Part shown: positions 12,396-54,910 of the stretch, one piece after another | Layout: each line of letters begins with the position of its first letter | Position numbering within the stretch: the first letter of the stretch is position 1 | Source: an uncultured Actinomycetota bacterium | GTDB taxonomy: Bacteria; Actinomycetota; Actinomycetes; Mycobacteriales; Jatrophihabitantaceae | Assembly (NCBI GenBank): GCA_963797455.1 | Contig: CAWCPK010000001.1 | Coordinates: 1,338,155 to 1,402,154, forward strand | Length of the DNA: 64,000 nt | Reading direction: 5' to 3' | Program-made: the position numbers and the translations under genes | The notes under the pieces: model-generated | The model's input: only the letters and a program-made list of their open reading frames with translations | Database searches by the model: none | What the model was told of the DNA's origin: nothing

Positions 12396-13548
12396 TCACG
12401 CGAGCGCTGACGCGAGGTCGGCGAGCAGGTCGTCGACGGACTCGATGCCGACCGACAGCCGGACCAGGTCGGCGGGCACCTCCAGCGGCGAGCCGGCGAC
12501 GACGCGTGCGTCATCCGCGCCGGGTGCTCGATCAGCGACTCGACGCCGCCGAGGGACTCGCCGAGCGTGAACAGCCGGCCCGGTTGCAGACCTCGACGGC
12601 CGCCTCCTCGCCGCCCGCAGCCGGAACGACACCATGCCGCCGAAGCCCCGCATCTGCTTGGCGGCGATCTCGTGGCCCGGGTGCTCCGGCAGCCCGGGGT
12701 AGAGGACCTGCGTCACGGCGGGATGCGCGGTCAGCAACTCGGCGATCCGCTCGGCGTTCGCGCTGTGCCGGTCCATCCGCACGCCCGAGCGTCTTGATGC
12801 CGCGCAGCACCAGCCAGGCGTCGAACGGGCCGGCGACCGCGCCCATCGCGTTCTGGTGGTACGCGAGCTCCTCGCCGAGTTCGGCGTCGTCGCGACGACC
12901 AGCGCGCCGCCGACGACGTCCGAGTGGCCGCCCATGTACTTGGTCGTCGAGTGCACGACGACGTCCGCGCCGAGCGCGAGCGGCTGCTGCAGGTAGGGCG
13001 TGGCGAAGGTGTTGTCGACGACGAGCCGCGCGCCCGCCGCCGCGCGATATCGTCGCGAGCGCCGGCGATGTCGGCGATGCCCAGCAGCGGGTTGGTCGGG
13101 CGTCTCGCACCAGATCACCTTCGTGTTCGGACGGACGGCGGCGCGCACCGCGGCCGGGTCGGCTAACGCCACCGGGGTGCACTCCAGCCCCCATCGGGCG
13201 ACGACCTTCGCGAAGAGCCGGAACGTGCCGCCGTACGCGTCGTCGGGCATGACGACGTGGTCGCCGGGCCTGCAGCAGCGTGCGCAGCAGGGAGTCCTCG
13301 GCGGCGAGCCCGGAGGCGAACGCGAGGCCGCGGCGGCCGCCCTCGAGGGCGGCGAGGTTCTCCTCCAGCGCGGTCCGGGTCGGGTTGGCGCTGCGGCTGT
13401 ACTCGTAGCCGCCGCGCAGCCCGCCGACGCCGTCCTGCTTGTACGTGGACACCTGGTAGATCGGGGACACGACCGCGCCGGTGGTCGGGTCGGGCTCCTG
13501 CCCCGCGTGGATCGCGAGGGTCTCGAAGCCGTAGCCGCGCTCACTCAT
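12396..13548 (-). pseudogene. cystathionine gamma-synthase / O-succinylhomoserine sulfhydrylase family (PLP transsulfuration enzyme), split over three frames
   Basis: N-terminus [16 protein letters not shown], the PLP-lysine region ([12 protein letters not shown]) and the C-terminus GIESVDDLLADL lie in different minus-strand frames (ORFs 12532..13719 and 12396..13544), so there are at least four frameshifts. Confidence 0.7.
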
Positions 13549-13641
13549 GCAGCGAACCGTACCTACCCGGATTCCCGGCCGACCACAGCTACGCTCGCGG
13601 CAGAGCGGCAACAGGACCGCCTCGAAAGGCGTCTGACAGTT

Positions 13642-51348: not shown

Positions 51349-54300
51349 TCACTGATGCGGCGCGGGCCGGGCGACCACGGACTCCAGCACCTCGCCGCAC
51401 CACGCGAGCAGCGCGATGTCGCGCAGGTCCTTCGGACGGGGCACCGACATCGTCTTCACGGCCGCCTTGTAGTGGGACCGGTCGTAGATCCGTTCCAGCC
51501 GCAGCTGCGCCGACTCGGGCAGCTCGACGGGCGTGAACCGGACGAGGTTGCCCTGCAGCGACACCTCGGTGACGCCGAAGCGCCGGCACAGCACCTTGAA
51601 CCGCGCCACTGCCAATAGGTTCTCGACCTGCGACGGGATCGCGCCGTACCGGTCGAGCAGCTCCGCCCGCACCGCGTCCACGGCCTCGTCCGTCGTGGCC
51701 GAGGCGAGCGTCCGGTACGCCTCGAGCCGCAGCCGCTCACCGGGCAGGTACTCGACCGGCAGGTTCGCGTCGATCGGCAGGTCGACCTTCACCTCGGCGG
51801 AGTCCTCGGGCGCGGGTCCGCCACCGGCAGTTCTGAAGTCCGCCACCGCCTCGCCGACCAGCCGCACGTACAGGTCGAAGCCCACGCCGGCGATGTGCCC
51901 GGACTGCTCGCCGCCCAGCAGGTTCCCGGATCCGCGGATCTCGAGGTCCTTCAGCGCGACGGCCATCCCGGCGCCCATCTCGGTGTGCTGCGCGATCGTC
52001 GCGAGCCGGTCGTACGCCGTCTCGGTGAGCGGTCGCTCCGGCGGGTAGGTGAAGTACGCATACCCGCGCTCACGGCCGCGCCCGACGCGGCCGCGCAGCT
52101 GGTGGAGCTGGGAGAGCCCGAACATGTCGGCGCGGTCGACGATCAGCGTGTTGGCGTTCGGGATGTCGAGGCCGGACTCGACGATCGTCGTCGCGACGAG
52201 GACGTCGTAGGTCTTCTCCCAGAAGCCGATCATGATCTGTTCGAGCGCGTGCTCCGGCATCTGGCCGTGCGCCACCGCGATCCGCGCCTCGGGCACGATC
52301 TCGGCCAGCTTGGCCGCCGCTCGGTTGATCGACTCGACGCGGTTGTGGATGTAGAACACCTGCCCGTCGCGCAGCAGCTCACGGCGGATCGCGGCGCCGA
52401 CCTGGCGCGGGTCGTAGGCGCCGACGAAGGTGAGGATCGGGTGCCGTTCCTCGGGCGGGGTGAGAATCGTCGTCATCTCGCGGATGCCGGTCAGCGACAT
52501 CTCGAGCGTGCGCGGGATCGGCGTCGCCGACATGGTCAGGACGTCGACGGCCGTGCGCAGCCCCTTGAGGTACTCCTTGTGCTCGACGCCGAAGCGCTGC
52601 TCCTCGTCGACGATCACCAGGCCGAGGTCCTTGAACCGGACGGTCTGCTGGAGCAGCCGGTGCGTGCCGATGACGATGTCGATGGACCCGTCGACGATGC
52701 CGTTCCCGACGGCGTCGACCTCGGAGTTCGGCGTGAACCTGGACAGCTCCTTGATCTTCACGGGGAACTGCGCCAACCGGTCGGAGAACGTCTGGATGTG
52801 CTGGTGCGCAAGCAGCGTCGTCGGGACGAGGACGGCGACCTGCTTGCCGTCCTGCACGGCCTTGAACGCGGCCCGCACCGCCACCTCGGTCTTGCCGTAG
52901 CCGACGTCGCCGCAGATGACGCGGTCCATCGGCAGCGCCTTCTCCATGTCCGCCTTGACCTCGTCGATCGCGGCGAGCTGGTCGGGCGTCTCGACATAGG
53001 CGAAGGCGTCCTCGAGCTCGCGCTGCCACGGGGTGTCCGGCGCGAACGCGTGCCCGTGCGTGGCCATCCGCGCGCTGTAGAGCCGGATCAGCTCTGCGGC
53101 GATCTCCTTGACCGCCTTGCGCGCCCGGCCCTTCGTCCGCGCCCAGTCGGCACCGCCGAGCCGCGACAGCGACGGCGACTCGCCTCCGACGTACTTGGTG
53201 ACCTGGTCCAGCGCGTCGGTGGGGACGAACAGCCGGTCGCCCGGCTGGCCACGCTTGGACGGGGCGTACTCGATGATCAGGTACTCGCGCTCGCCGCCGT
53301 TGACGGTGCGCCGGACCATCTCGACGTACTTGCCGACGCCGTGCTGCTCGTGCACGACGAAGTCGCCGGACTTGAGCTGGATCGGGTCGATGGCGTTGCG
53401 CCGCCGGGACGGCAGCCGGCTCTTGTCGAGCGTCGATCGAGCCGCGCTGGCCGGTGAGGTCGGCCTCGGTGAGGAACGCCAGCTTCAGCTCGGGGGCGAC
53501 GAGGCCCGCGGCCAGCCGCCCGGTGGTCACGTCGACCATGCCCGGCTCGACCGCCGCCTCGGCGACCAGCCGAGCCGGGCATCTCCGCCGCGGCCAGCCG
53601 CTCGACCGCGCGCTGCGCCGAGCCGTGCCCGTCGAAGACGAGCGCGATCGCGCCAGCCCTCGCGCGCCCACGTCTTCAGGTCGGCCAGCGCCGCGTCGGT
53701 GTCGCCCCGGTAGGACGGTGCCGAGCCGAACACGCTCGCGGTGGCGTCCGGTTCGGTGAGCGCCGTGATACCCCACCACGGCAGGCCCAGCGCGCGGGCC
53801 TCGGCCTGCACCGTGTCGAGCTCGCGCAGTGACGCAGCGCCGAGGTCGACCGGTGCCTGCCCGCCGCCGGCCGCGACCGCCCAGGACGCGTCGAGGAACT
53901 CCTGCGAGGTGCGGACGAGGTCGGCCGAGCGGGTGCGCACCCGCTCGGGGTCGCAGACGACGACGTGCGCACCGGCGGGCAGCTCGTGCAGCACGAGCGC
54001 GAGGTCGTCGACGAGAACGGGCCCCAGCGCCTCCATGCCCTCCACGGCCTCGCCGCGGCTGATCGGGTCGAGCAGCTCGGCGAGCTCCGGGTACTCGGCG
54101 AGCAGCTTCGCCGGCGCGCGCCTGAACCTCGCCGGTGAGCAGCAGTTCACGACAGGGCGAGGCCCACAGGCCGTGCTCCGCAACCTCGAGCGAGCGCTGG
54201 TCGGCGACCTTGAAGTAGCGGATCTCCTCGACCTCGTCGCCCCAGAACTCCACCCGCAACGGGTGCTCCTCCGTCGGAGGGAAGACGTCGAGGATGCCGC

Positions 54301-54910
54301 CGCGCACCGCGAAGTCGCCGCGCTTCTCGACGAGCTCGGCGCGGGCATATCCCGCGCCGACGAGGTCGGCGACGATGTCGCTGAGCTCCCGGCCGTCGTC
54401 GCCGGCGTGCAGCTCGACCGGGACCAGCTCGCCGAGGTGCGGCACCTGCGGCTGGAGGACCGCGCGCACCGGTGCGACCACCACCGACAGCGTGCCGGCG
54501 GCCGGGTCGTCGGGCGAGGGGTGGGCGAGCCGGCGCAGCACGGCCAGCCGCTGGCCCACCGTGTCGGCGCGCGGCGAGAGCCGCTCGTGGGGCAGCGTCT
54601 CCCAGCCCGGGTAGAGCGCGACCTCGTCCGGCGGCAGCAGGCAGCGCAGGGCGGCCACGAGATCCTCGGCCTCCCGCCCGGTGCTGGTGACGGCGAGGAC
54701 GAGGCGCCCGGCGCGCGCCGCGGCGGCGATGGCGAACGGCTGCAGACCGCTCGGCCCGCTGATCGTCAGGCTCGCCGAGTCGAGCGATTCGAGGACGGCG
54801 GCGAGCGCCGGATCGGCCGATGCAGCGGGAAGCAGGCCGGACAGCGAATGCGGGGTCCGCGCGAAAGCGTGGAGCGTTGTCTGCGGAGCGGTTTCGTGGG
54901 GTGCGGACAC
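51349..54910 (-). pseudogene. mfd: transcription-repair coupling factor Mfd, split over at least three frames
   Basis: N-terminal UvrB-like region (ORF 52379..55000), middle (ORF 53527..54348) and C-terminal helicase/TRG region (ORF 51349..53355, DEEQRFGV) lie in different frames. Confidence 0.85.

Follow-up and report, generated by a model that had tools for sequence, protein, structure and literature searches.

Frame changes of one or two bases in six genes of a Jatrophihabitans-like actinobacterial contig are very probably errors of the deposited consensus

The window, the whole stretch of 64,000 nt that was analysed, lies on a 1.94-Mb contig of an uncultured Jatrophihabitans-like actinobacterium (~71% G+C). 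Six of its genes are split across reading frames, and one of these, lon, contains a tandem repeat. These features are as follows.

12396–13548, minus strand: metB-like gene (cystathionine gamma-synthase), nine frame changes relative to the L001 orthologue (DNA and frameshift-aware alignment)
19543–20762, plus strand: thiolase (acetyl-CoA C-acetyltransferase), 1-nt deletion at 20449–20450, outside a homopolymer
23083–24289, plus strand: acyl-CoA dehydrogenase (fadE-b), 1-nt insertion at ~23979–23983
26409–28837, minus strand: lon (endopeptidase La), six frame changes relative to L003
27078–27172, minus strand: tandem repeat inside lon, a 30-nt unit repeated 3.2 times
46978–48277, minus strand: eno (phosphopyruvate hydratase), 1-nt insertion at 48064–48068, GT[G]CATGG, outside a homopolymer
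51349–54850, minus strand: mfd (transcription-repair coupling factor), four 1-nt insertions, none in a homopolymer

A neighbouring sigma factor at 33984–34289 seems truncated, with most of its length lost. A putative 56-nt array lies beside tRNA-Leu.

Frame changes were located by frameshift-aware protein-to-DNA dynamic programming in our own implementation, using orthologues on related Jatrophihabitans-like contigs as references (six for eno, eight for mfd, two for thiolase, and one each for metB-like, lon and fadE-b, with profile matches as additional evidence for the last two). Plain blastn gap parsing, which this procedure replaced, returned 456 gaps at 70–85% identity, mostly spurious, and was dropped as an indel count. 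Extra events at 46635, at the pair 29983/30028 and at 28841 (a further lon-region indel relative to L003, upstream of the GTG start) were discounted as non-coding positions, and those at 26159, 26207 and others as antisense pseudo-ORFs of the references. The alignments gave 22 frame changes (metB-like 9, lon 6, mfd 4, and eno, thiolase and fadE 1 each), all with a net size of 1 or 2 nt, and among these 22 sites insertion-type events (~15–16) were about twice as common as deletion-type events (7). Since the orthologues of all six genes are unbroken at the matching positions in every relative examined, and the events are confined to 6 of 33 assessed genes, the frame changes are not due to chance. 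All six genes that the preliminary description had named as split across frames are split, at or near the places it gave. A search for an accurate assembly of the same strain or species for base-by-base comparison found none, the closest relatives being at ~90% protein identity; a Ppx scan of the genome collection gave 73% identity as the best among the matches listed, and an amidohydrolase scan of metagenomes returned mainly short or distant contigs, and no useful reference.

For the metB-like gene, in which at least four frameshift sites had been claimed, the nine frame changes (13275, 13100, 13060, 13041, 12893, 12786, 12617, 12576 and 12502) reflect at least ten indel events; once corrected, the product shares 84% identity with the L001 orthologue (dN/dS 0.24, no stops), matching NF005871 with 654 bits (cut-off 513) over profile positions 11–386 of 389. 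The thiolase deletion, previously put near 20448, was positioned by alignment to relatives (ATGGGCT-CGG in the window, GGGTACGG in the relative), with an identical site against L002 and L010, and the corrected product matches NF005890 with 767 bits over positions 1–406 of 406. The fadE-b break, described earlier as near 23975 by a GCGGCG run, corresponds to the single inserted base, which adjoins a GCGGCGGCGGCG run; against its single orthologue, L002, the corrected product has 92% identity and a dN/dS of 0.11. The extra base of eno, whose frameshift had been placed near 48060, was read directly from the sequence, and six orthologues concur on an identical site (L003, L004, L005, L006, L010 and L165); the corrected product matches TIGR01060 with 645 bits over positions 1–423 of 425.

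For lon, at least two frameshift sites and a repeat had been noted; the six frame changes lie at 28498, 27963, 27914, 27651, 27266 and ~27145–27109, and with the frame restored the product has 91% identity to L003 Lon (dN/dS 0.12, no stops), matching TIGR00763 with 828 bits (cut-off 608) in a single stretch. In frame, the tandem repeat encodes a 10-residue unit three times. Its first copy in gene orientation has 29 nt, without the A of GAGCATGAC that the other two copies keep, and this short copy serves, within the gene itself, as a control for the loss of one base. The L003 gene lacks the tandem repeat, with 29 nt there vs 118 nt in the window. An 803-codon open frame at 36451–38859, with its large ORF at 36724–38859, was considered as lon and rejected after translation and homology search, which identified it as an intact malQ.

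For mfd, with at least two sites claimed, the four single-base insertions (~54106, 53649, 53579 and 53437) keep their positions to within 6 nt across eight references (six proteins, for two of which the L165 and L166 genes were also used, plus L010), and correction yields a product with 87% identity to P0245 across 1159 aa and 1024 bits against TIGR00580. The C-terminal Mfd fragment of 668 aa (51349–53355) coincides exactly with P0241, a product called on an NCBI/ENA contig of 1,941,046 bp, on which P0121 is likewise an exact product; because the frameshifted fragment is a public called product, the indels exist in the public record. Similar errors recur independently in two related ENA long-contig assemblies of one shared accession series, L167 (seven frameshifts in mfd and three in mazG) and L168 (one in mfd), at sites that differ from those of the window, and we infer the contig of the window to be part of that series too. 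On two JGI contigs (L165, L166) mfd is intact, as it is in four further relatives, the last four as judged from called proteins only. The match list contains many short Mfd homologues from long contigs; of the two that were checked, the one on L167 is a true frameshift split and the one on L168 is short mainly through a contig end, plus one frameshift, and the list itself is only suggestive of frameshifts.

The 22 events fall in 6 of the 33 assessed genes (36 kb), where ~15 affected genes would be expected under a uniform rate (P<5e-6), and a uniform per-base error rate was rejected on this strong clustering. They form patches of ~0.7–1.5 kb (12.5–13.3 kb, 27.1–28.5 kb and 53.4–54.1 kb) with a density of roughly 4–13 per kb, plus three isolated sites. 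Long genes free of frameshifts include those for an 820-aa acetyltransferase/ligase and an amidohydrolase, as well as cbs and malQ. With the events clustered and these long genes clean, the earlier wording of "pervasive" frameshifts is too strong.

Signs of decay were sought in the six genes after correction. All corrected products align end to end with their orthologue at 84–92% amino-acid identity, and five of six score above the cut-offs of NCBIfam equivalog models, each with one unbroken match across all frameshift sites. A search for nonsense codons in the six corrected genes found no in-frame stops, dN/dS (Nei–Gojobori) was 0.11–0.24 in the shifted genes vs 0.115–0.42 in 14 intact neighbours, and third-position differences predominate both before and after each shift. 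In corrected Mfd, 10 positions that are otherwise invariant carry a private substitution, vs 3–16 in eight intact homologues, with no excess inside the Mfd frameshift cluster. Real bacterial pseudogenes show a deletion bias; neither this nor relaxed selection nor nonsense mutations, the pseudogene marks tested, was found in the six genes, which apart from the indels are intact.

The lack of stops, the full-length frames, the unrelaxed dN/dS and the excess of insertions agree with consensus or assembly error but not with real pseudogenes. The deposited consensus, and not the organism, is very probably the source of the 22 frame changes, which would then be of technical origin. This indirect evidence strongly supports the earlier preference for assembly indels over pseudogenisation, and its caution about pseudogene calls in the window; the homopolymer cause it proposed is not supported. 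That all six genes are genuine pseudogenes, in a lineage undergoing reductive evolution or through real frameshift inactivation, is highly improbable. In its favour, the deposited sequence does contain the indels, the nearby sigma factor looks truncated, and many bacteria can do without Mfd, Lon, MetB or single paralogues of thiolase or FadE. Against it, insertions outnumber deletions, there are no nonsense codons, no relaxed dN/dS and, in Mfd, no excess of private substitutions, nine or six independent shifts sit in genes still 84–91% identical to their orthologues, the mfd frameshifts of related long-contig assemblies are different ones and two JGI contigs have none, and enolase is normally indispensable. 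The label "essential" in the preliminary description holds strictly only for eno and not for mfd, lon or the metB-like gene. Nine shifts in a 1.15-kb metB-like gene at 84% identity cannot, on these alignments, be reconciled with neutral decay. There is likewise only a very small chance that the indels are real, the six genes having been very recently inactivated by multiple small insertions or, in a milder form, the patches being real strain microdiversity; real indels would imply an unusual insertion-prone mutation process, or a dependent lifestyle with enolase replacement.

Two further explanations concern the sites themselves. Programmed or tolerated recoding, in which ribosomal frameshifting or transcriptional slippage would restore the proteins, draws on nothing beyond the frameshifts themselves; against it stand the number of shifts, as many as nine in one gene and of either direction, the lack of slippery sequences or homopolymer tracts where they occur, and orthologues that are unbroken at these positions in all relatives, so that the shifts are not conserved. 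With neither conservation nor slippery sites, recoding is already refuted, and we regard it as next to impossible. Systematic platform errors at homopolymers or GC runs, the cause favoured in the preliminary description, or at DNA-methylation motifs, a variant added here, would be compatible with sites 13100, 12786, 27651 and 27914, which comprise three insertions extending CC or GG to CCC or GGG and one deletion shortening CC to C, and with the several sites beside CATG or GATC. A check of all sites for homopolymer and simple-repeat tracts, however, showed that these four of 22 are the only ones in homopolymers (2–3 nt, about the background expectation), that the other 18 lie in a run-length-1 context, and that one of 22 adjoins a GCG repeat; bases in runs of at least 3 nt make up 10.7% of all bases and hold 3 of 15 insertions, which is no enrichment, and homopolymers anywhere in the window reach at most 6 nt. 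A search of all 4–6-mers within 8 nt on either side of the sites for a shared motif found none significant after multiple-testing correction (best p=0.0013 among 125–179 k-mers tested; CATG seen 3 times vs 0.9 expected), and methylation-linked miscalls were dropped on this unbiased test. As a general cause, homopolymer or methylation-motif errors are already largely refuted and, in our assessment, improbable. Homopolymer indels are the best-known error mode of nanopore, 454 and Ion Torrent sequencing, and with only four of 22 sites homopolymer-associated the present set is atypical of that mode.

Consensus error could have arisen as follows. Long-read metagenome assembly is the most likely origin of the source contig, and the consensus would have retained spurious single-base insertions (the majority) or dropped single bases, in patches and at the three isolated sites, after which gene callers would have broken each affected gene into fragments. 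The likeliest reasons for the patchiness would be locally low effective coverage and reads of co-occurring strains that confuse the polisher. In annotating this contig or a sister assembly, one would take enolase, Mfd, Lon and an enzyme of the methionine pathway for pseudogenes or fragments, and wrong inferences on metabolism, completeness or genome decay would follow from such calls. The patchiness, the insertion bias and the mostly non-homopolymer sites bear on polishing and on frameshift-aware annotation. The matter is one of data quality and a warning for annotation, and implies no new biology.

Programmed frameshifts, as in prfB, dnaX and IS3-family transposases, occur at single, conserved, motif-dependent sites; they resemble the present case in that one gene lies in two frames, and differ in that the shifts of the window are multiple, lineage-specific and motif-free. 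Mycobacterium leprae and Leifsonia xyli are reductive genomes with real pseudogene accumulation and share with the window the picture of an actinobacterium with many frameshifted housekeeping-type genes, but such decay comes with nonsense codons, relaxed dN/dS, a bias towards deletions and a wide spread of deletion sizes, and the six genes show none of these. The closest likeness is to the indel errors of long-read assemblies, the target of proovframe, Kastor, IDEEL-type checks and short-read polishing, in which single-base indels split conserved genes as they do here, with orthologues at full length and sister assemblies hit at other sites. Passages in four sources document gene-fragmenting indels in long-read assemblies (10.1101/2021.08.23.457338, PMC9262707, PMC12007338, PMC8103633), and a passage in one of them gives homopolymer indels as the classic nanopore signature (PMC9262707); the window departs from that signature in its mostly non-homopolymeric sites, its dominant insertions and its ~1-kb patches.

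Open reading frame lists are uninformative at the high G+C content of the window (67–73%), and syntenic relatives were therefore gathered as references: JGI contigs L001, L002, L163, L165 and L166, GTDB genomes L003–L006 and L010, and full-length Mfd proteins. The nearest proteins came from Jatrophihabitans, Jatrophihabitantaceae and 'Pseudonocardiales' metagenome-assembled genomes (~90% identical in the case of cystathionine beta-synthase), and the orders fadA-like thiolase, GDSL lipase, cbs, metB and mfd, mazG, eno, DivIC-like, DUF501, ppx are conserved actinobacterial arrangements, common to related contigs. 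A seemingly intact IS1595-family transposase (zinc ribbon and DDE domain; 14830–15795, plus strand) lies between a beta-lactamase-like gene and cbs, where L001 and L002 carry other genes. Genes were aligned using a custom protein-to-DNA dynamic-programming aligner with frame changes permitted, which recovered two simple cases from tblastn and DNA alignment. MalQ (P0121) and a 668-aa C-terminal Mfd fragment (P0241), both on a 1,941,046-bp NCBI/ENA contig, are exact matches in the public protein collection, so the frameshifted state is as deposited.

The alignments against relatives bore out the splitting across frames of all six genes named in the preliminary description, and these frame changes are, on sequence evidence, very probably consensus errors:

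46978–48277 (−): eno, one extra base at 48064–48068, the identical site against six orthologues
51349–54850 (−): mfd, four 1-nt insertions at ~54106, 53649, 53579 and 53437, agreeing within 6 nt across eight references
26409–28837 (−): lon, six frame changes at 28498, 27963, 27914, 27651, 27266 and ~27145–27109
12396–13548 (−): metB-like gene, nine frame changes, at least ten indel events
19543–20762 (+): thiolase, 1-nt deletion at 20449–20450
23083–24289 (+): fadE-b, 1-nt insertion at ~23980

The remaining 27 assessed genes were without frame change, including those for an 820-aa acetyltransferase/CoA-ligase protein, HDAC, cbs, GDSL lipase, BaxI, fadE-a, malQ, amidohydrolase, acetyl-CoA hydrolase, UDG, ppx, DUF501 and mazG. 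A large frame at 36.4–38.9 kb was ruled out as lon, being intact malQ. Near codon 10 of a 223-aa gene between mazG and mfd (49971–50626, minus strand), a possible extra 1-nt deletion was seen at ~50596 against one reference only. The damage had been called pervasive; the presence of the 22 events is confirmed, but they are patchy, striking 6 of the 33 genes assessed (36 kb) where ~15 would be expected at a uniform rate (P<5e-6), with at least nine in the 1.15-kb metB-like gene (binomial P ~1e-8). Patches lie at 12.5–13.3, 27.1–28.5 and 53.4–54.1 kb, and isolated sites at 20449, 23980 and 48068; low local coverage or strain mixtures may be the cause.

Local realignment against the closest DNA reference gave ~15–16 insertion-type versus 7 deletion-type events, every one of 1–2 nt. 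Homopolymer or GC-run chemistry, blamed in the preliminary description, did not hold up as the cause. Homopolymers were involved only at 13100 (CC to CCC), 12786 (GG to GGG), 27651 (CC to CCC) and 27914 (CC to C), and the fadE-b site adjoins a (GCG)n run; remaining sites had run-length-1 contexts, such as GT[G]CATGG in eno and GAA[G]CTG, GCG[A]TCG, GAT[G]CCC and CGA[T]CGA in mfd. Since 10.7% of bases in the window are already in runs of at least 3 (longest 6 nt), homopolymers were not enriched at indel sites over this background. CATG or GATC adjoins some sites, which prompted consideration of methylation-linked miscalls, and an unbiased 4–6-mer test gave no significant motif. Systematic error at homopolymers or methylation motifs is thus improbable as a general cause.

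Within lon, a 30-nt tandem repeat (3.2 copies, 27078–27172), not present in the closest Lon (L003), lies in a linker and encodes the same ten residues three times when in frame. Copy 1 has 29 nt (GAGC-TGAC) against 30 nt in copies 2 and 3 (GAGCATGAC), an internal control on the 1-nt loss. A period that keeps the reading frame points to a real duplication, although a long-read expansion artefact could also produce it. Elsewhere, a 56-nt array (3.5 copies, 97% matches; 42912–43108) abuts tRNA-Leu(UAA) (43098–43171, minus strand) and overlaps its 3' end; the array resembles a series of degenerate copies of the 3' half of a tRNA, because every unit holds T-arm-like GGTTCGAATCC and acceptor-like CCGGGGGTAC pieces, and could derive from integration relics at the tRNA, slippage or assembly artefact. 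A 12-nt tandem repeat (28 copies, CGGCGTGGGCGT; 61455–61795) in an 898-aa beta-helix/NosD-like ORF (59865–62561, minus strand) is read as encoding a putative Thr/Pro-rich linker.

Genes with 4–9 real frameshifts would have been long free of selection, with substitutions far above indels, and decaying bacterial pseudogenes are expected to carry nonsense codons and more deletions than insertions; enolase is indispensable as a rule. None of these marks (surplus substitutions, nonsense codons, deletion excess) was seen in the six genes, whose corrected frames held no in-frame stops. Frame-corrected identities to the nearest orthologue were 84% (metB-like), 90% (thiolase), 92% (fadE-b), 91% (lon), 86% (eno) and 87% (mfd), equal to or above those of intact neighbours. 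Five corrected products each scored above an NCBIfam equivalog cut-off in one unbroken match across every shift site (metB-like, cystathionine gamma-synthase, 654 bits, cut-off 513; thiolase, 767, 580; lon, 828, 608; eno, 645, 300; mfd, 1024, 800), and fadE-b matched acyl-CoA dehydrogenase models through its site, below any equivalog cut-off. dN/dS (Nei-Gojobori) was 0.11–0.24 versus 0.115–0.42 in 14 intact genes with the same references, with differences falling mostly on third codon positions throughout. When nine Mfd sequences were aligned, 10 otherwise invariant columns carried a substitution private to the window, versus 3–16 for the intact homologues, without excess in the frameshift cluster. 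Apart from the indels, the six genes are thus intact.

Genuine pseudogenes, failing the selection, lesion-spectrum and recurrence tests, are highly unlikely, and programmed recoding, which fails on conservation and multiplicity, can practically be dismissed. The window's one candidate for real truncation, as distinct from small-indel error, is an ECF-type sigma factor (33984–34289, minus strand) retaining only residues 5–107 of 303, with 81% identity to its L163 orthologue.

Consensus error, the main inference of the preliminary description, is supported by the intact corrected genes, the lesion spectrum and recurrence in two related long contigs from the same ENA accession series: because decay marks are absent, enolase is normally indispensable and the damage recurs elsewhere, it is the preferred reading. 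L167 (ERZ25039495, contig_15049, 955 kb) has seven shifts in mfd (8599–12140) and three in mazG (12968–13624), and L168 (ERZ25039457, contig_56672) one in mfd (~242), at sites differing from the window's. mfd is intact in L165 and L166, and the remaining full-length reference Mfd proteins had been called without interruption. Among the Mfd matches listed, many products on contigs of at least 200 kb were far shorter than ~1160 aa, at least one being cut partly by a contig end. On this reading the frame changes are an artefact with practical consequences in annotation, not a biological feature; gene-fragmenting indels of long-read assemblies are well described in earlier reports (10.1101/2021.08.23.457338, PMC9262707, PMC12007338, PMC8103633).
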